Source: Rhizaria sp. SCN 62-66
Taxonomy: Eukaryota
Length of the DNA: 32,551 bases
Assembly: GCA_001724265.1 (NCBI GenBank)
Contig: MEDY01000094.1
Coordinates: 62,001-94,551, forward strand
Direction of reading: 5' to 3'
Shown piece by piece: positions 1 through 13,846 of the stretch (position 1 is the first letter of the stretch; each line of letters begins with the position of its first letter). The notes under the pieces are model-generated. The model worked only from the letters and a program-made list of their open reading frames with translations. It had not been told where the DNA came from and did no database searches. A program made the translations under genes and the position numbers.

Positions 1-3000
1 GCGAGGCCGCGATCTCGGACGCGGCGGCGCTCTCCTCTGCGGGCGCCAGCGCGGTAGCGGCCGAGATGAGCGCGCTGAGGCAGCCCACCAGCACGGCCAA
101 CGCGGGCGCCGCGGCAGAGGCTACGGCCGAGTCCGCGGCCGAGAGCGAGGGCAGCGCAGCCGCGACGGGCACAGGAGTCGCGGAGGTCGCGCTGTGAGCG
201 CGCAGTGCGTGGGGGGGCGGCGGCGGGGCGGCGCCGGAGAGAGTGCTGGTGTCGATGCCGACGAGCAGCGTCGACACCACGTGCGAGTGCGCGCCAGTCG
301 CACCGGCGCCGGCGCCGCTGCCGCTGTAGGCGACGCGCATGGGCTGGCCGCTGTGGCCGTGCGACTGCGAGTGCGCGTGCGACAGAGCAAGAGTGAGAGC
401 CAGACCCGACGACTGCTGCTGCTGCTGCTGGCCAGTCTGCTGCCCATGTCGCATCTGCTGTTGCTGTTGCTGCAGCTTGACTGTGGTGAAGGCCGACTGC
501 ACGAACGCCCTCGCGGCAGCGGGCGCGGGCAGCTCAGTCACGTACGCCAGCGCCATCGCCGCCGCTACGGCGCGCTTCTGCGCCTTGTACGCCAACACGC
601 CGGCGAGATCGTCAGTGTTGACGTCTGCGTCCGCGTTACCGGCGCCGTCGCCGTCGCCGTCGTCGTCGCTGTCGCTGTCCGAGGAAGGCGGCGCGCCGGG
701 CCCCGCCGCCGCGAGCGCGGCCGCCGAGGCCGCCGTGACGACGCACGCGCCCGGGAGCGCCCACGCCGGCGCCGGTCCGCCTGCTGCGGCCGCAGCGGCG
801 GCGGCCGCGGAGGCCGGATCGCACAGCGCTGACGCAACCGTGACTGCAGCTTCGGACGCGGCCAGCGCGAGCGGCAGCGCAAGGGCCCACAGCCGCTCGG
901 CGCTCGCCTCGTCCGCAGCAGCAGCAGCGGCGGCGGCGGCAGCGGCACTGGCGGAAGTGGAAGCACTGGCATGGTTCGGGTTGGCGTTGCCGTTGGTGTT
1001 TATTGTCGCGCCGCTCATGTCGGTGGTAAGGTCGCCGCCCCAGTCGCCCGAGGCCGCGGCCGCAGCGGCGCGCGAGTACTCGCCCAGCGAGGCGGGCAGG
1101 TCGCTGCCTTCGACGGCGGCAAGCCGGGCAGCGGCGGACGCGGCGGCCGCCTGGGCCGAGACCGCGGCGGCGGTGGCCGCGGCGAGGCGGCCGAGCGCGC
1201 CGGAGCCCGCGCTGCCGCAGCAGTCGTCGCCGTCAGGCGAGCCGTCGCCGTTGCCGCTGTTGTTACTGTTGTTGTTGTTGCTGCTGCTGAGCTCAAAGTG
1301 GGAGCGCGTATCACGGTGCAACAGCGACTGCGAGTGAACATGCGACTGCGGCTGTGCGGGCGAGACTGGGTCAGAGCCGAGCAGCGCTGCGAGCGTGTTG
1401 ACGGTCTCCACCGCGGCGGCCACGGTGCGCGGCAGCTGCCAAAGCAACAGGTTCGGCTCGTCGCCCCCGCAGTCAGCGCCCTTGCCGGCGGCACTCGGGG
1501 ACTGGCTGCCGTTCGCCACGGCAACGGGCGACGGCGAGTGCGACAGCCTGGGATCGTTGTCGCCTGATAGGGCGAATGAGGCCGATAAGTCGCGCACCAC
1601 GCCGGCGCAACCCAGCTCCCGGTCTCGGTTGCTGTCGCCGCCGACAACGCCGCTGGAGCCGAGGTTGCACTCGCAGTCGCCGACGCAGCAGCACCCGCTG
1701 CCCGCGCCGCCAGCATAACAGCCAGCTCCAGAGTCGGCACACGCAGCCGTAGCAGCTGCGGCAGCGGCGCCGCCGGGCGCAAGCGCCGCGACCGACGCGG
1801 CCGCCTCCGCCGCGGCCGTGGCCTCCGCCGCCGCGGCCGCAAGCGCTGCCCCCAGGGGCCTGAGCGCGGCGGCGTAGGCTGGCGCGGGCGGCAGCGCGCG
1901 CAGCGGCGCGTGCGTCTCCGCCGCGGCACCGGCCTCGGCGACGGCGTCGAGCGCGCAGAGCAGCAGCGGCAGCGACGCGAAAGCCATACGCACGCACGCG
2001 CGCGGGCGGGCGGGACGCGCGCGCGGCGCCGCGGCGGGCCGGTAGGGGCTCTGGGTCGGAGACAGGTAGGCAGAAGACTGCGAGGCGTGAAGCTGCGACT
2101 GCGGCTGCGGCTGCGAGTAGCCTCGGCCAGCAGCAGTGTTAAGCGCGTGATTGTTGCTATTGTTGACTCCAATTGCTACAGTCGACAGAGACCTCAGCAC
2201 GTCGGCAGACGCCTCATGTCCCGCATTCGCACTCGCGCCTGCAGCAGCAGCAGACGCAGCCGCCGTGATGTTGTTGCCGTTGCCTCTGTACGCGCTGTGC
2301 GGCGCCGCGTGGCCGACGTCCGCGGCCGAGGCGCCCGCGGCGTGGGCCAGCACCGCGCCGAAGCCCCACACGCACTCGCCGAGCGCGCTGCCGCCGCAGA
2401 GCGCCGCGTCCGTCGCGCTGTAGTCCGCGCACGCAGACGCAGCGCTACTGTTCCTGTGCCCGTATGCAGTCGTTGTAGCGCCGGTGAATGCGGAGCCGGT
2501 AAAGGCGGGGGTGGTGGGTGGGCAAGGCAAGAAGAGCGGCCGTGCGGCGAGCGCCGAGGCCGGGAGCGCGAGCAGGGGCCGGCTGGACGCGGCGCGGAGC
2601 TCCTGGGAGTAGTCGCTCCGGCCTTCTTCGTTGGGGTCAGCGCCACTCGCCGCATCAGCGCTCTCAGAACGGTCGCGGTCGCGCTCACGGTCTTGGGCGG
2701 CGTTGACCGCAGGCGCTGTTGAGCTGGAGTGAGAGCTGTGAGTGTGCAAGTTCCTGCTCGCGCTCGCACTGGGATGCGGAGTGCTACTGTCCGTGGCCGC
2801 CGCCACGGGGGGACCGTGGCCGGGCAGCAGCATCACGATGTTGTGCCGCACCCAGAGACGCGCGCGCACAACCACGTCCTCCGTGCCCGTGAGAACGCCC
2901 CCGGCCTCTGCGGCGGCGGCGGCGGCCGCGGCGACGGCGGCCGCGGCGGCAGGGTCGGCGGCCAGCGCGCGCGCGCGTGCGGCGGCGGAGGGCAGCGAGT

Positions 3001-3745
3001 CGAGCCATGCGAGCACCGGCACCGGCGCGGGGGCGCGGGGCCGGCACGCCGTGGCCAGCGCGGCGGTCGTGGCGGCGGCGCTCGCTGCAGCGGCCGCGGC
3101 GGCGTTGTCGTAGGGTACAAGAGCTGTGTTATCGTCGTCGTTGTTGTAACTGTAGTTGTTGATGTGGTTGCTAGCGGAAGACGTGGGGTCGGCCGTGAGC
3201 ACAGGAGCAGTCACGGCGCCGTTAGCGTCGTTGTACGCAGCCTCACAGACACCAGTATAGCCGTAAGTAGCATCCGCAGCAGCAGAAGGAGCGCCAGACG
3301 AGACAGCCGCGCTGGCAGCGGTGTGGCGACAGGGTGAAACAGCTCCGACTACGTGCGGCTGCGGTCTCGCGAGGACCTTAACGGAGAACGACAACGTAGG
3401 GTTACCAACATGCACAAGCTGTGAACTCTGTTGCTGCTGCTGTTGCGGATATAACTGCTGCTGTTGCTGCTGACGGCCATTGAAGCTCGTCGTGTTGTTG
3501 TTGACAAGGTTGCCGGCCAGGACGTCGTTGAGGGAGACTGGGTTGGCAGCCAGCGAAAGACGTGGGCGCAGAGACGCCTGGGCAAACGGCAGCGGAAGCG
3601 CGTTTTGCGTTGGGCCGAGCGCAGTAGTGTCAATCTGTGGACGTGGCGCGCCCCGTGCGGCGGAGGCAGCGGAGGCGACGGCAGCACCACGAGGCGCCCC
3701 TTGCTGAGAGGCGTTCGCAGCGGAACCGAACTATTGTCGGTTCAT
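1..3745 (-). CDS. Large Ala/Gln/Ser-rich hypothetical protein (>1240 aa, 3' end beyond the left edge), with an in-frame TAG at codon 5
   Basis: The minus frame with codons starting at 3745 reads ATG AAC CGA CAA TAG TTC GGT (MNRQ*FG); I found no stop from 3730 to the window edge. It has polyQ/polyA tracts like the other genes. It is probably missing from the ORF track because it has no stop inside the window. The next in-frame ATG is ~300 codons later (2833). No domain recognised. Confidence 0.7.
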
Positions 3746-4030
3746 GCCTTAGACTTTAAACAAAGGTTAACAGGTACAAAAAAGACAAAAATGAGTCCAA
3801 AACCTTCACTAGACGCGATTGATATCGTCTGACGCGATGAATACGGCGTAAAGGAGGCCGAGCTCAACTCGAAACTGCACATAAAGGAATCGAAATCTTG
3901 CCGAAAACGTCGTCAAATAGCTATGAAATTTTGATATTATATACAAACTAAAATGAGACTATCTGCCATAAAAGGATTTTCAAAAGAAATGTGATTATGG
4001 CGGACAAAGGTTTCTTAAGGTGATGGAATC

Positions 4031-4062
4031 CCACAGTCGCCCACGGTCACTTCGGGTCCGAC
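4031..4062 (+). promoter_or_regulatory. Candidate upstream element: CCACAGTCGC-CCACGGTCAC followed by GGTCCGAC
   Basis: GCCCACGGTCAC (4039-4050) recurs exactly on the minus strand at 21176-21187. The 10-mer core also occurs at 21561. Both copies lie in sense orientation upstream of a gene. Confidence 0.45.
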
Positions 4063-4084
4063 CACAAACCCTCCTCAGCTTCAC

Positions 4085-4473
4085 AGCGAACGCAAAACGG
4101 GCCCCCAGTCACTTGGGGCTCAAAGGGGCGCTGTTGTTTGAGTCCCGTGCTGCGTTTTCGCTCGCGTGTGTGGATTATTTCATGTTATACCCTGATTGCG
4201 TGGAATGATTTCTGTGTGTGTATTGTATTGTTTTACTGCAGACGCAAACTTTCATTTGAGAACGACAACCTAACCGAGAGGTTGGGGAGCAGCAGGTGGA
4301 CCTACTGACACACGCCACGAGTGCTGCGGCAGTGCTGTGGCGCGGCACTGCTGCGGCGCGCTGTGGGGTGCATGCGACCCACTTCTTGGTCGGAAAACTG
4401 CCTGATCGAACTTGGAGTGCGGCGGACTGCCCTTGTGTCGCCTGTCGACAGGGGTCCTGACAAAGCTCCGAGT
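4085..4473 (+). ncRNA. Candidate structured RNA or structured 5' leader (family unknown)
   Basis: By-eye folding gives a three-way junction (4085-4162), a 7-bp GAGA-tetraloop hairpin (4269-4286), a 17-bp contiguous helix (4321-4337/4343-4359, 4 G-U pairs) and an irregular hairpin (4410-4473). All three plus frames hit a stop shortly after 4241. Confidence 0.3.
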
Positions 4474-4850
4474 CGCCTCGACCTGCCCTCGCAAATCCTG
4501 TGCATGCCACACCGCAATCGTGCCGCGGACACATCCTACTGCTGTGTTCTTGTGTAGTACCGATGAACAACTCCGCCTTTGAGTTTTAATCTCTTTTGGG
4601 CGTTGTTATGCCCCTCTCAGGTCTCGTTTGCTGTGCGCGCCAAGGACACGTCAACGTTCCGCTTCCTGGCTCATCCCGACGATAACAAAACACTGCTAAA
4701 CATGCGTTAAACAAAGCCCAGTATCGATAATTTTGTAATATGTTGTACTAATGCATTTATTGAACTCACCGTCTTGTTTGAATTTCTTTATACGTTGATC
4801 TCACCTTACCCGACCTATTTTTGCGTGTCGCGCTCAGCTCGTTGGCACAG

Positions 4851-7625
4851 ATGAACGCAGGAGCGGCTGCCGAGGAGGCCCGCCTGCAGCGCGAGTGGTT
4901 CCCCGAGGCCGTGCCGGGCCTTTTCCGCGTCTCCAAGGCCGAGGCTGCTGCCGACCTTGACGTCATTCAGGCGTCTCTCATGCGCTTCCAGCAGCAACCC
5001 CAGCCTCCCTCTGCTGAGGCCCCCATTGACCGCGCCTCCAAGAAGTCTCGCCTCATCGAGAAGATCTTCCGTGATGCGTACGTTTCTTCTACAACTGCTC
5101 TTCATTTTGCTTTTCACTCACTCCATTTAATTTTTTCACTTGAGCACTTTCACTAACCTCTTGTCCAACTTGCCTCCCTCGTGATACTCGCCCCCCACAG
5201 CACCCCGCACCACCTGCAGCGCGAGGAGCACGCGAACCTCCGCGCCGTGCTCGACCAAGTGCGCGCCGACACGCTCTCCCTTAAGGACGCGATGTCGAAC
5301 GTGCGCCGCGACCACGCCCTGGCGATCCGCGAGCGCATCGCGCACGATCAGCACCTCCAGTCTTCGCGCGAGGACATGCTCGCCACGGTTGGCGCCACCG
5401 AGAGTGCGCGCGCGCTCTACGCCGACGCGCTGCTGACGCTGCGGCGGCGCCTGGACCTTGCGCACGACGACGCCGACGTGGCGCGGTCGCGGCTCGAGGA
5501 CGCGCGCACGTTCGCGGTGCGCATGCAGACGATGGAGCAGGAGCAGCTCGAGCAGAGGCTGCGCTTCGACGCCGTGTGCGACGAGAACGCCGCCATGCAG
5601 GACCTGCTGCGCGGCATCGTCGACGCCATGTACCGCGCCGACGCCAAGAAGCCCGTCAAGGCCAAGAAGAGCGCCGCCAAGAAGGACGGCGCTGCTGCTG
5701 AGGGCAATGCGAGCTCCAGCGCCATTGCCAGTGCTGATGTCGAGGACAAGAAGGACAGCGAGGACGCCAAGCCCGCCGACGCCGTGGACACTGCCACCAA
5801 GGCCGACGGCGACGCCGCCGCCAAGAGCGACTCTGCCGCCGCTGAGGATGGAGACGACGACGACGATGACGCCGAGGCCCCCGTGGACGCCATCCTGCGC
5901 GTGCTGTCGGCCGAGCAGGTCGCCATTCTCCGCGAAATCGCGCAATCCAAGGCCAAGGCCGCCGCGGCCAACGCCGTTGTCGCGGTCACGGTCACGGACG
6001 GCGACGCGGCCGACGCCGACGCCGCCAAGGCCGAGGGCGCGGAGAAGGACGGCGCCAGCGCGGAGATGAGCGACCTGGTCAGCGTCGGCCCGCTGCCGAC
6101 CGCCAACGCCGACGGCGCCGTCAAGGCCGAGGCGTCCTCGTCCTCGTCCTCCTCCTCTGACAGCGCCAGCGCGAGTGCTAGTGAGCAGAAGCCGCAGTCG
6201 CAGCTGGTGACGCTGCTGGGCCCCCCGTCGCAGACCCGCGGCAAGCGCGCCCGCGAGGACGGCGCCGCCGTAGCCAGCAACGACAACAACAACGACGACA
6301 ACAGTAAGGAGAACGGCGACGGCGCGGGCGACGTGTCTCTGCCGGCCGCCACGCGCCGCCGCTTCGCCTACGAGGCCGGGCTCGAGGCCACGGGCGACGA
6401 GGGACTCGAGCCTGCGGCCGCGGCCGCGCTGAGCGCCGAGACCCGCGCGGCCCGCAAGAGCGCGCTCGAGTCACACGCGCGCCTGCTCGACTTCGAGGGC
6501 GTTTTCGACTCGCACGTCTTCTTCTCGTTGCTGCGCCGCCAGGTACGAGCAAATGAAGCTTGACAATTGCGTGGCGCTTACTTTATGTTTATCCGATGAA
6601 ATGAATCCACTTGTCTTTTCACACTGTATCTTGTTCGCTCATCTCGTGCACGAACTTATCTCTCGCGTTTTGTTCTTCTTTAGGTGGACCACATCCTGGA
6701 GCTGCAGGCGACGCTGGGCAGCGAGGCCGTGCGCAGCGCCGAGCTCGCCGACGAGGTCGCCGTGGGCGCGCAGAAGATCGAGCTGCTCACCGCCGAGGCC
6801 GAGAAGGTCAACGGCGTCATCGCGCGTCTCCGCGACGTGTGTCTGCAGCAGGAGCTGGCCATCGTGTCGCACGAGTCGCGCACGCAGGCTGTGCTGCAGG
6901 AGCTCGACCTGGTGCGCCGCGAGAAGAGCCAGCTCGAGGCGCAGAAGGTCGCCGACGACATTAAGTACCGCTCGCTCGTCGACTGCCTGGCCGCGGCCGA
7001 TGTGCGCAGCGTCGAGGCTGAGAACGCCGTGCTCGACTCGCTCCACGAGCTCCGCGTGCTCCGCACCGGTAACGCCACGCTGCAGACCGCCTTCGACCGC
7101 CTCTCCCGTGAGCGCAACGAGCTGGCGCGCACCGTGGTCGAGCTGGAGGACCGCAGCGCGGCGTCGGCGGGCGCGGCGGGCGCAGCCGAGGCGGCCGCCG
7201 AGTCGACCGGCGCGGACGCGACTGCGCTGGCGCTGCGACTGCAGAAGCAGCTCGCAACGACGCGCGCGCTGACGAGCGAGCTTAAGGCGGCCGAGGACGC
7301 GCAGCGCCTGCAACAGAAGGAGATCAAAAAGCTGCAAAAGCAGCTCGCGGACATCATGGGCACGCGTATCGGCGAGCAGATCGAGGTGCTCGAGGTGCTG
7401 GAGCCCAAGGCCGCCGCTAAGGCCGCCGCGTTGACTGCGGCGAACGCTGCTGCGAGCACGACGGCCAGCACTTCGGCCGCCGTCGCCGCGGCCACCGCCA
7501 ACGCGGCCGCCGCCTCGGACTCGGCCGCTGCTGCCGCCGGTGCCGGTGGCGAGGAGGACGAGGCCGCGGCCGGCGCGGCGGGCAGCACGATGGGCGACGG
7601 CGAGGTGCGCGTCAAGAAGGAGTAA
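4851..7625 (+). CDS. Coiled-coil hypothetical protein, ~836 aa, 3 exons: join(4851..5077,5201..6542,6684..7625)
   Basis: Three ORF-track segments join in frame through GTACGT..CAG (5078-5200) and GTACGA..TAG (6543-6683). It has heptad-like E/R/L/A/Q-rich blocks separated by acidic/Ala-rich linkers and ends in TAA. An additional upstream exon cannot be excluded because an AG abuts the ATG. Confidence 0.8.
5078..5200 (+). other. Spliceosomal intron (123 nt)
   Basis: GTACGT donor, CACTAAC branch-point match at 5151-5157, CCACAG acceptor. Removal restores the frame (..RDA|TPHH..). Confidence 0.85.
6543..6683 (+). other. Spliceosomal intron (141 nt)
   Basis: CAG|GTACGA donor, T-rich tract, TTTAG acceptor, phase 0. 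Confidence 0.85.
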
Positions 7626-8380
7626 GCAATGCAATCCACATTGCGTCGTTTATTATCAAAGCTACTAAAGAAAGAAAAAACTATCTTGCTTGAGCTCGCT
7701 TTAAATCTTGCCTCTTCTTACTGCCGCTACCGCTCTATTCGTTACTGCTTTTGCTTTCTGTGTTCTGTCCTCTCAGTGCTTTGTGTTTCTATTCCACAAA
7801 CGACAACCTTGTTGTTGACAATGTATAGATATGCCGAAGAGTTACTTCCCCCGTTTTACCTTAGTTCATCTTGTTATTTCTTTTTAAAATGTACTGAAGA
7901 CGCGTCCTAGTACAACGCATACTTTGTCATCATTATGTACATAATGATGTTGCGCTGTGGTCATGTTTGGTTGTCGTTTCAACGAATGTATCGTTAAATC
8001 GTCGATAACTACAACAAGGGCAGCAAGAAATATCTCTTTCATTTTTCCGAATGATTGGTCAATGACAACAAATTTATGTTCCTAACAGTGGTTTTATACT
8101 GTTTTTTCCTTACTACCATCACTTTTTATGAAGTGACTGCGTGTGAGCACACATCGAAACAATCAACATTAAAAACAAACACAATACAAAAATCTAATAT
8201 CAAAAACATATTGTATACATTTGTGTTTACATTTTGTCTCATTGTTTGACCCTAGAAGAATAAAAAATGAACTAAGTATCTCAATTTGCTATCATCTACA
8301 CAACGACCTAAGACGACAGCAGCAACGTTAATTTATAACTCACAGAGCACGTGCATTATGCCTCGCCCTCGCACACGCAC

Positions 8381-10687: not shown

Positions 10688-11611
10688 ATGGCATCGACCG
10701 CCTTCGCCCCCTGGGCCAAGGACTCGAAGTCCCTCTTTGCCGAGTTCGGCACCCGTTCGCTGACGAACGGCCTCACTTCAGAGCAGGTGGCGGAGAACCG
10801 CGCTAAGTACGGCGCGAACGTCATCCCTGCTGGCAAGACCACCTCTATTTTCGCCCTCATCCTGGACCAGTTCAAGGACCACCTTGTGCTGATTCTGCTC
10901 GGTGCCGCTGTTGTGTCGTTCATCCTCGCGCTGTTCGAGGAGGGCGAGGACCGCATCACGGCCTTCGTCGAGCCCGCTGTCATCCTTATCATTCTCGCCG
11001 CCAACGCCACCGTCGGCGTGGTCCAGGAAACCAACGCCGAGAAGGCCATCGAGAAGCTCAAGGAGTCCGAGGCCTCCGAGGCCGTTGTGATCCGCGACGG
11101 CAAGACCGTCACCGTCCACCCCTCCGACCTCGTGCCCGGCGACGTGATCGTGCTCAACGACGGCGACAAGGTCCCCGCCGACGCGCGCGTGCTGCAGCTC
11201 ATCTCGGCCGTGCTCTACATCGACGAGGCGTCACTTACGGGCGAGGCCGAGGCCGTGCACAAGACCATCGACCCCATCCGCCAGACCGACATCTCCGTCC
11301 AGAAGAAGACCAACATGGTCTTCTCCGGCACTCTGGTTGTTCGCGGCAAGGCCATCGCCGTCGTGTGCACTACCGGCGCCTCGACCGAGCTCGGCGTGAT
11401 CGCGTCTTCGCTCGAGGACAAGGACGACGACGACGACGAGGACGATAAGACCCCGCTGCAGAAGAAGCTCGACCGGTTCGGCGAGCAGCTCTCCAAGGTC
11501 ATCACCGTGCTCTGCATCCTCGTCTGGCTCATCAACATCGGCCACTTCACCGACCCCGTCCACGGCTCCGTCTTCCGCGGCGCCATCTACTACTTCAAGA
11601 TCGCCGTCGCG

Positions 11612-11645
<34 letters not shown>

Positions 11646-13846
11646 CCGTTGTCACCACCTGCCTCGCGCTCGGCACCTTCAAGATGGCCAAGAACGGCGC
11701 CATCGTCCGCTCGCTGCCCTCGGTCGAGACGCTCGGCTGCACCACCGTGATCTGCTCCGACAAGACGGGCACCATCACCACGAACAAGATGTCTGTGCAG
11801 CGCGTCGTCATCGTCACCGAGGCCGCCGTCGCCGCCGCCAAGCCTAAGACCACCGCGAGCCGCAAGTCCTCTGCCAAGTCCGGCTCTGCCGTCGCCGCCA
11901 AGGGCTCCAAGAAGGACAGCGAGATCGTCGATGACCTCGAGATTCACGAGTACGCCGTCACCGGCGACTCCTGGTCGCCCCTGGGCGAGGTCGTTGAGGC
12001 CGCCGACGACGACATCGAGCTCGTGTACCCGGGCGTCGACGTCCCTGCGCTTACCATCATGTCCAAGATCTCCACGCTGTGTAACGAGTCGAGCCTGACC
12101 CACGAGATCGACGCCGCGACCGGCGCCGACGTGTTCGGCAAAGCCGGCACGCCGACCGAGGCCGCACTGCTCGTCATGGCCGAGAAGATCGGCGTCCCCG
12201 ACGAGAAGGCTATGGAGAAGCGCGCCGCGCTGTCCGCCAGCGACCGCATTGACATGGCCAGCAAGTACTGGGCTAAGCTCTTCAAGCGCGTGACGCTGCT
12301 CGAGTTCGACCGCAACCGCAAGTCGATGTCGATGCTGATTGAGGACGTTAAGACCAAGAAGCAGTCGCTGCTCGTCAAGGGCGCGGCCGAGAAGGTCCTC
12401 GAGCGTTGCGACCACGTGCTTGTCGACGAGAACGTCGTGCCCATGACCCGCAAGCTCCGCTCCGCGCTCGAGGCGCACCTGGACGTGCTCAACGCTGACG
12501 GGCTCCGCTCACTCGCGCTGGCCTACCGTGAGGACGCCCCCAAGAACGCCGACTACACCGACATGGACAAGTACGCCGAGTACGAGTCGAAGCTCGTGTT
12601 CGTGGGCATGGCCGCGATGATGGACCCCCCGCGCGCGCCCGTCAAGGCCGCGCTGGCCGAGTGCAAGCAGGCCGGCATCCGCGTCATGATGATCACCGGC
12701 GACAACATCCGCACTGCTGAGTCCATTTGCCGCCGCATCGGGCTCTTCGGCGAGGACGAGGACATCGAGGGCAAGGCCTACACCGGCGACGACCTCAACC
12801 GCATGACCCCCGCCCAGCTCTCCGAGACCGTCAAGACTGCCAAGCTGTACGCGCGTGTCGAGCCCCGCCACAAGCTGGCGATCGTCGAGGCACTCAAGAA
12901 GCAGGGCGAGATTGTCGCCATGACCGGCGACGGCGTTAACGACGCGCCCGCGCTCAAGCGTGCCGACATCGGCGTCGCCATGGGCTCCGGCACCTCTGTC
13001 GCCAAGGAGAGCTCCGAGATGATTCTGCAAGACGACAACTTCGCCACCATCGTCATGGCCGTCCAGGAGGGCCGCGCCATCTACGCCAACACCAAGCAGT
13101 TCATCCGCTACCTCGTCAGCTCCAACATCGGCGAGGTTGCCTGCATCTTCGGCACTGCCGCGCTCGGCATCCCCGACGCGCTCATTCCTGTCCAGCTGCT
13201 CTGGGTCAACCTCGTCACCGACGGCCTGCCGGCCACGGCGCTCGGCTTCAACCCCGCGGACCCGGACGTGATGAAGAGCAAGCCCCGCGACAGCGAGGAG
13301 AACATCATCAACGCGTGGATGTTCTTCCGCTACCTCGTCATCGGCATCTACGTCGGCGTCGCCACCATCGGCGGCTTCATCTGGTGGTACCTCTACTCCC
13401 AGACCGGCCCCAAGATCACCTTCTGGCAGCTCACCCACTTCCACGAGTGCGCCAAGTCCCCGGTCAACTTCCTCGGCGTCGACTGCGGCATCTTCTCCCA
13501 CCCCGTGCCCTCGACCATCTCGCTCTCCATCCTCGTCCTCATCGAGATGTTCAATGCCTTTAACGCGCTGTCCGAGAACCAGTCGCTGCTCAAGGTGACC
13601 CCGCGCTCCAACCCCTGGGTGGTGGGCGCCGCCATGCTGTCTTTCTCGCTGCACCTCGTCATTGTCTACGTGCCCTTCTTCAACTCCATCTTCCGCATCG
13701 CGCCGCTCGGCAAGGCCGAGTGGTACGTCATCGCGGCCGCCTCGCTGCCCGTGTTTGTCGTCGACGAGATCCTCAAGCTCATCACGCGCATCTGGGGCCC
13801 CGGCAAGCCCTCGATCGATGTCACCCCCGCCCAGAAGAACAAGTAA
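10688..13846 (+). CDS. ATP2A: P-type IIA Ca2+-transporting ATPase (SERCA type), 1052 aa, no CDS introns
   Basis: Motifs [49 protein letters not shown]-type Ca2+ site residues are present in [17 protein letters not shown] and IEMFN. Confidence 0.97.

Follow-up and report, generated by a model that had tools for sequence, protein, structure and literature searches.

The minus strand of the 32,551-bp window analysed here (the whole stretch G000:C94:62001-94551, from a 34.9-Mb assembly of 714 contigs) carries a gene whose fifth codon is TAG, which raises the question of whether UAG is a sense codon in this genome and, if so, for which amino acid. Positions 3745-3725 read ATG AAC CGA CAA TAG TTC GGT, with the TAG at 3731..3733, and the frame is then open to the window edge, as the preliminary description had stated. 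The part of the gene inside the window (1..3745, minus strand) spans 1,248 codons and is of low complexity, rich in Ala, Gln and Ser. With the TAG read through, the full gene comprises 1,685 codons, continues beyond the window, contains a second in-frame TAG at codon 1419 (outside the window, locus L011) and terminates in a TAA with an AT-rich tail behind it; no Pfam match was obtained for its protein in the parts scanned. Re-reading the eight complete genes of the window gave the same counts as before, namely six ending in TAA (7625, 13846, 18505, 24394, 29839 and 32219), two in TGA (8381 and 19506) and none in TAG.

We asked whether the coding signal includes the TAG. A codon model scored the 30 codons from the ATG at 3743..3745 onwards at +17.7 and the 30 triplets upstream of it at -15.2, so that the coding signal begins at this ATG; the next in-frame Met is codon 305, in line with the earlier estimate of about 300 codons. 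Upstream of the ATG no coding-like frame was detected, the one sizeable frame there scoring as non-coding, and a non-coding leader on the minus strand (3746..3862) is represented, without gaps, in the same RNA-library contig that spans the TAG (X10 record 6, see below). A divergent plus-strand neighbour begins near 4851, and the roughly 1.1 kb between it and the window gene (3746-4850) contain short inverted repeats around 4095-4135 and 4330-4370.

The window is contained in sequencing runs from bioreactor, wastewater and sludge samples, and four of 13 such runs (X3, X4, X6 and X10) were compared with window positions 1-7800 in the form of contigs, which reveal neither strand nor rare variants. 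The contig from X3 (study P2, record 13) covers 2993-4862 with no differences, and that from X10, a poly(A) RNA library that may contain DNA (study P3, record 6), covers 3640-3862 with no differences or gaps and runs unspliced across the TAG, the depth in X10 being zero in bins 3901-4680. In X4 (P3), record 20 matches 3171-4810 with one difference whose position in that span is not given, and in X6 the TAG site is not covered. Based on the unchanged X3 and X10 contigs, the TAG at 3733-3731 is real and no assembly error, and the model switch at the ATG together with the non-coding upstream frame indicates that it most likely lies inside a translated frame. Neither the CAG-to-TAG error that the preliminary description had held equally possible nor its other suggestion, a null allele, found support. 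X4 also contains a related organism, visible at window 4850-5084, about 5260-5300 and 7307-7400. It differs at 31 of 235 bases, chiefly in third codon positions, and this relative would reveal directly which codons exchange with TAG.

Whatever the code of the genome, this particular TAG could in principle be a splice acceptor or the end of a four-codon upstream frame. It is only the fifth codon of the frame, no homolog is available to anchor the start of the protein, and TAG does serve as a splice acceptor in this genome, several in-frame TAGs elsewhere having turned out to be acceptors, as the earlier caveat had anticipated. That caveat does not fit 3731-3733, where the RNA-library contig (with the reservation on DNA noted above) crosses the triplet unspliced, no upstream coding exon exists, the 12 preceding bases are rich in purines and the same gene has another TAG in mid-frame. 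We regard a purely local explanation of this kind as improbable.

Stop-codon usage was then assessed beyond the window. A Markov model was run on a blind sample of 672,551 bases (15 contig pieces, about 2% of the genome, including the window and the stretches around the eRF1 and tRNA genes described below), in which stops with coding sequence upstream comprised 67 TAA, 56 TGA and 22 TAG. Coding sequence flanked the stop on both sides in nine cases for TAG, in one for TAA (in a 5' leader before an ATG) and in none for TGA, even though TAG is the least frequent of these triplets in the sample (TGA is 2.4 times as frequent), and internal TAGs thus exceed chance. Among terminal-like stops without a donor motif (45 TAA, 30 TGA, 8 TAG), the eight TAGs resolved into three that read on as coding, three that seem spurious and two doubtful ends, one of which was a weak frame on re-reading. 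A second method, applied to the 15 blind pieces and 57 further loci, some of them picked for containing TAG, delimited 268 coding segments (195,856 codons) with 70 TAGs, of which 38 lie at least 40 codons from both ends; internal TAGs were present in 12 of the 15 blind pieces. The first stop after these segments, where no donor motif was nearby, was TAA 55 times, TGA 42 times and TAG once, and this lone TAG end (1 of 98) falls in a repeat region where the frame reads on; where a donor motif was present, the counts were 34, 34 and 3. A looser scan that took each codon as sense returned 35 internal cases for TAG, 14 for TAA and 16 for TGA, the TAA and TGA cases being mostly leaders, introns and wrong frames, with one or two TGA cases unexplained. 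TAA and TGA triplets in four kinase matches (L130, L158, L159 and L165) likewise fall within intron-like inserts. We conclude that UAA and UGA remain terminators. At L081:8351-8857 (plus strand), a TGA without Pfam match has coding-like sequence on both sides and may represent selenocysteine, a short 3' tail or a broken gene.

When 150 candidates were scanned against Pfam (80 of 99 TAG, 35 of 62 TAA and 35 of 143 TGA candidates), the codon lay inside a Pfam-matched stretch in 3 of the 80 TAG candidates and in 0 of the 70 TAA or TGA candidates, most internal TAGs being located in low-complexity regions without database homologs. UAG occurs about once per 5,000 codons and would account for around half a percent of Glu codons (GAA and GAG make up 8,568 of 217,296 codons), in a genome with a strong preference for G/C-rich codons (TTA 351 and ATA 121 in 155,456 codons).

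One eRF1 and one Pelota gene were found in the search for release factors. The eRF1 gene itself has an in-frame TAG in domain 1, at residue 107, and the same TAG recurs in contig L183, which was assembled separately, is identical over 1,626 bases and may come from a related sample. Two motifs of domain 1 are altered, GTS to GSS and GTASNIKS to SKASNIKS, and not one of 120 homologs carries the substitutions T32S and G57S (human residue numbers, derived from the offset of the motif). P0004, the nearest relative at 84% identity, keeps GTS and G57, and T58K is common to P0004 and the present eRF1 only; when the metagenome was scanned with the P0004 eRF1, DNA from this relative did not turn up. Thr32 forms a bond with the G of UAG and has been replaced by Gly in Iotanema (PMC5304391), whereas the GTS motif is intact in standard-code relatives of Iotanema (PMC9161772). 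T32A is lethal in yeast (PMC4381064), which would make the milder replacement by Ser plausible, and GTS-loop variants are enriched for UAG readthrough, T32S not being among those reported in the available text of PMC12440015.

A pattern search also identified a tRNA gene with a CUA anticodon (L064:1489-1561, minus strand, contig G000:C84), which is intact and, by DNA search, single, compared with eight hits for tRNA-Glu(CUC). C84 is a nuclear contig, and the neighbourhood of the tRNA gene on it consists of ordinary coding genes. The gene scores 58 bits against the Rfam tRNA model, and a direct check of pairing found all four stems fully paired; minimum-energy folding, which gave no cloverleaf (z -1.5), was set aside in favour of this check. 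A UUA anticodon was absent from the 17 matches to the pattern, which describes short-armed, intron-free tRNAs; the accompanying Rfam search covered 63 of 506 candidates. The CUA tRNA has the acceptor sequence UCCCACG with U1-A72 and G73, a GUCU D arm with U13-G22 and a four-base variable loop, and over its 73 bases it shares 47 positions with the organism's own tRNA-Glu(CUC), 40 with Glu(UUC), 36 with Gln(CUG) and 32 with Gln(UUG). In metazoan data, the Glu signature is UCCCW.R plus GUCU, the Gln signature is GGYYCCA plus GUGU, and U1-A72 is given for Asp and Glu only (PMC9023262); by its sequence the CUA tRNA fits this eukaryotic Glu signature, defined on metazoans, and not that of Gln. The bacterial Glu determinants U11-A24, U13-G22:A46 and a missing base 47 (PMC9976931) are all present, but so are U1-A72, G73 and U35, which belong to the bacterial Gln determinants in the same source, whose available text gives no eukaryotic data. 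Because these determinants are bacterial and some are shared with Gln, charging of the CUA tRNA with Glu can only be inferred. The tRNA further shows A37-A38 in place of the A37-C38 of the organism's Glu tRNAs, and a T run directly behind the gene, features that would be expected of a transcribed gene tuned to a codon starting with U. Judged by the tRNA, a pyrrolysine system was rejected, since the 'Pyl' label assigned by ARAGORN follows the anticodon alone and the CUA tRNA has U1-A72 on a Glu body instead of G1-C72.

Next, we sought to clarify which amino acid UAG specifies. In-frame TAGs lie inside eRF1, five kinase domains, a UBE2J-type ubiquitin-conjugating enzyme and a ubiquitin-like domain, and family searches returned TAG-bearing matches among kinases, the ubiquitin-like domain and DEAD-box proteins. 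Triplets that proved to be splice acceptors were dropped before scoring (the kinase matches L156, L163 and L164 and the DEAD-box match L185), as were two TAGs of L157, one located in an intron and one an acceptor; no usable internal TAG came from the DEAD (43 matches) or ABC (20 matches) searches. A weight matrix for acceptors, derived from 262 junctions that had been called automatically, did not tell known acceptors apart from internal TAGs and was not used further. Eight TAG sites were scored, with two more at match edges left out, and across all 20 residues the Pfam profiles ranked Glu first (0 bits), followed by Gln (-3.9), Lys (-5.3), Asn (-5.8), Asp (-6.4), Ser (-10.1), Tyr (-17.5), Val (-17.8), Leu (-20.6) and Trp (-22.9). 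The best-conserved columns are acidic. Of 120 eRF1 homologs, 109 have E in the TAG column, 10 have D, one has V and none has Q, the single Val being that of P0004, which suggests that the column is relaxed in this lineage, given the 84% identity of that relative. The UBE2J-type column holds D in 89, E in 23, N in 13, S in 12 and Q in one of 150 homologs (retrieved with a query read with E at the TAG, one residue of 142). A TAG in the kinase hinge faces E in 32, D in 6 and Q in none of 41 of the organism's own kinases, and two paralogs carry D three columns beyond it. At the hinge column RAF has Gln and KSR has Ser, both being the best PDB matches of that kinase, and in the ubiquitin-like paralog the TAG faces a CAG (Gln) of the organism's own ubiquitin. 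Taken alone, this protein evidence says a polar residue, putatively Glu first and Gln second.

The sequence around the TAGs has another bias. The flanks of 45 TAG sites are Gln-like over Glu-like (naive-Bayes Q -8, E -34, with His best), five of these sites being Gln-rich and two acidic by context. Our reading is that CAG-to-TAG transitions would supply most TAGs in unconstrained regions: in strict polyQ context TAG (2) is no commoner than the non-synonymous neighbours CGG (4) and GAG (4), which fits tolerated CAG-to-TAG changes better than a synonymous codon. With the genome-wide evidence, the residue at the codon-5 TAG of the window gene is most likely Glu, so that the N-terminus MNRQQFG of the preliminary description, supported in its suggestion that UAG is sense, would become MNRQEFG on account of the Glu body of the CUA tRNA and the acidic columns.

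Several TAG-bearing loci have features of their own. L162 and L163 (G000:C49 and C9) encode paralogous kinases with SEL1-like repeats, each with an internal TAG in the repeats but in different columns, and L162 carries another TAG in its kinase domain. The ubiquitin-like domain that carries an in-frame TAG (L172:178-900, G000:C681) is joined to a C-terminal region which we take to resemble the autocleaving chaperone domains of viral tail proteins, and the gene is possibly mobile or captured. The organism's ubiquitin is unusually divergent (L171, G000:C3:11100-14300; L174, L175 and L177), presumably differing from standard ubiquitin by, among other things, an Ala-Asn that replaces Thr-Gly in the first loop, a Gln at 46 and an extra Met-Ser at the start, and polyubiquitin junctions, a cercozoan marker, are absent from the ubiquitin stretches read. 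An open frame at L169:3261-3794 (minus strand, G000:C94) with an in-frame TAG presumably resembles a RAD51-paralog N-terminus followed by a P-loop; it has no homolog in three sequence libraries.

The proposal that UAG is a rare sense codon is thus borne out by the sequencing runs, stop usage, the CUA tRNA and eRF1 domain 1, and we consider it likely that nuclear UAG is read mainly as Glu, with UAA and UGA ending genes, through a CUA tRNA-Glu and an altered eRF1. A copy of a tRNA-Glu gene would have changed its anticodon from CUC to CUA by one base while retaining the Glu acceptor and D arms; GluRS would charge the product, whose anticodon should pair with UAG and not with UAA. Loss of the Thr of the GTS loop (T32S, with G57S beside it) may weaken the hold of eRF1 on the G of UAG, judging from the structure cited in PMC5304391, and the CUA tRNA would then outcompete eRF1 at UAG, gene ends would have shifted to UAA and UGA, and UAG could have re-entered coding sequence, the codon-5 TAG of the window gene being one such putative Glu codon. 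The TAGs, the tRNA gene, the eRF1 changes and the stop usage are observed directly, and from them we infer the charging, Glu incorporation and loss of UAG recognition that this scheme involves. The counter-evidence includes the small number of scored sites in recognised domains (eight), where the lead of Glu over Gln is 3.9 bits, and one or two gene ends that might use TAG.

How would the same data look under other codes? If the standard code applied, each TAG would have to be an error, a splice acceptor or a nonsense allele, with the CUA tRNA as a stray gene. Acceptor TAGs do exist (the four loci named above and one of the two in L157), and the internal ones are mostly in low-complexity sequence without homologs, few of the candidates lying inside a Pfam-matched stretch. 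Against this, a domain-1 stop in the sole eRF1 found would leave little of an essential protein; TAA and TGA should also occur among nonsense alleles, which is not what the strict counts (9/1/0 for TAG/TAA/TGA) and the Pfam scan returned; TAG is almost missing from gene ends; and the tRNA and eRF1 changes point in the same direction. We judge the standard code highly improbable. UAG might instead be sense but encode Gln, or a mixture of Glu and Gln, if GlnRS charges the CUA tRNA despite its Glu-like body, as the bacterial GlnRS identity elements in this tRNA would allow (PMC9976931). The second rank of Gln in the Pfam scores, the hinge residue of RAF, the CAG facing TAG in the ubiquitin-like paralog, and the TAGs within polyQ runs with their Gln-like flanks are in keeping with this assignment, which is countered by the Glu signature of the tRNA and its proximity to the organism's own tRNA-Glu, by the rarity of Gln in the three best columns (0/120, 1/150 and 0/41) and by the polyQ counts; overall, Gln or such a mixture is unlikely.

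A further reading, compatible with UAG = Glu and in fact a refinement of it, is an ambiguous code in which the Glu tRNA competes with a partly blind eRF1, so that most internal UAGs are read through and a few genes are still ended by UAG. The scarcity of TAG (38 sites in 195,856 codons, against the thousands of GAA and GAG codons), the single CUA tRNA gene opposite its eight tRNA-Glu(CUC) counterparts, the hydroxyl that T32S retains and the one or two possible TAG gene ends would all suit such ambiguity, whereas full-length eRF1 requires readthrough of its own UAG, homology anchors no TAG gene end, and the rarity of TAG also follows from the preference for G/C-rich codons. We view this refinement as possible without favouring it. 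With still less confidence, we speculate that the genome of a GC-rich cercozoan has been caught at an early stage of a code change, in which UAG has gone from gene ends and is re-entering as Glu and the T32S eRF1 may still stop at it in part. If UAG does terminate partly, the UAG in eRF1 could form a feedback loop, more release factor leading to less full-length product. If an early stage is indeed at hand, the P0004 relative with its GTS motif would allow a comparison of before and after, and the organism would represent a half-way state towards codes with UAG = Glu and another meaning for UAA.

The identity of the organism was addressed with a SERCA Ca-ATPase gene of the window (10688..13846, plus strand, ending in TAA), chosen as a phylogenetic marker. 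Its best named match is Spongospora. In a FastTree phylogeny of 57 sequences and 972 columns, from which two fused records were excluded, it groups with five environmental proteins (support 1.0), these nest in a clade with Paulinella (0.97), and that clade nests with Spongospora, Leptophrys, Elphidium and Nonionella (1.0). This one-gene tree places the organism in Rhizaria and probably in Cercozoa. Rosculus vilicus was ruled out as the organism by its GC content of 37.7% (PMC10770858). Rfam recognises four group I introns in a 4.4-kb, AT-rich, divergent 18S gene (L066:1501-5945, G000:C706), which may belong to another organism. Close to the first intron, an insert seems to encode what we take to be a His-Cys-box-like protein.

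Nuclear codes in which UAA and UAG change together are the rule almost without exception, and the few exceptions read UAG as Leu, Gln or Ser; PMC11687900 lists, as UAG-only codes, Leu in exLh and phyllopharyngean MAGs, Gln in Iotanema, Protocruzia and two ciliates, and Ser in Scotinosphaera. A nuclear code with UAG = Glu and with UAA and UGA as stops was not found in the literature searched, and neither was a second case of a code change in Rhizaria, subscription papers and supplements being largely outside the scope of that search. Iotanema spirale (UAG = Gln, with UAA and UGA as stops; PMC5304391) is similar to the present organism in that UAG alone is reassigned and is a minor codon, and in that eRF1 is altered at Thr32 with a relative that keeps GTS (Euthynema there, PMC9161772; P0004 here). 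It differs by T32G, Gln and its place in Fornicata, as opposed to T32S, most likely Glu, and Rhizaria, and by its CUA tRNA, which the available text of PMC5304391 only predicts and of which the gene was found here. The Gln type in general (Iotanema, Hartmannula, Trochilia) is set apart by the acidic best columns and the Glu-like tRNA described above. The exLh lineage (Sainouroidea, UAG = Leu; PMC5304391) is likewise a rhizarian nuclear genome with UAG alone as sense, but its eRF1 retains GTS and has L69A, whereas GTS is changed here, and Leu lies 20.6 bits below Glu at our eight sites, with a short-armed, Glu-like tRNA whose variable loop has four bases. In contrast to the first two cases, the present genome supplies both the tRNA and the release factor, so that gating of UAG by Thr32 becomes testable on a natural variant.

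Codes that share Glu have other differences. In Oligohymenophorea sp. PL0344 (UAA = Lys, UAG = Glu; PMC10553269) the CUA tRNAs are also nearest to tRNA-Glu, but UAA is sense as well, UAG is abundant and the tRNA has ten copies, whereas the present organism uses UAA as its main stop and UAG only rarely, and one tRNA copy was found. Peritrich ciliates and Blastocrithidia (UAA and UAG = Glu; PMC11687900, PMC12153298) read UAG as Glu together with UAA; here TAA ends genes and is not internal, and no UUA-anticodon tRNA came out of the pattern search. Phyllopharyngean ciliates (UAG = Leu or Gln) and Scotinosphaera (UAG = Ser; PMC11687900) are UAG-only and genome-inferred, some with CUA tRNAs, but assign another residue and have UAG in 78-91% of genes, as against a small minority here. 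With UAG as rare as it is here, a minority of genes, including that for eRF1, are cut short unnoticed by standard annotation, and code screens with few aligned TAGs could overlook such cases. Unlike most ciliate cases, the change sits in a genome with GC-rich genes. Compared with these systems, the organism's code most likely belongs to the UAG-only nuclear class and is new by its residue; if true, a code that reads UAG as Glu but retains UAA and UGA as stops would add another exception to the joint fate of UAA and UAG and be a second, independent change in Rhizaria.
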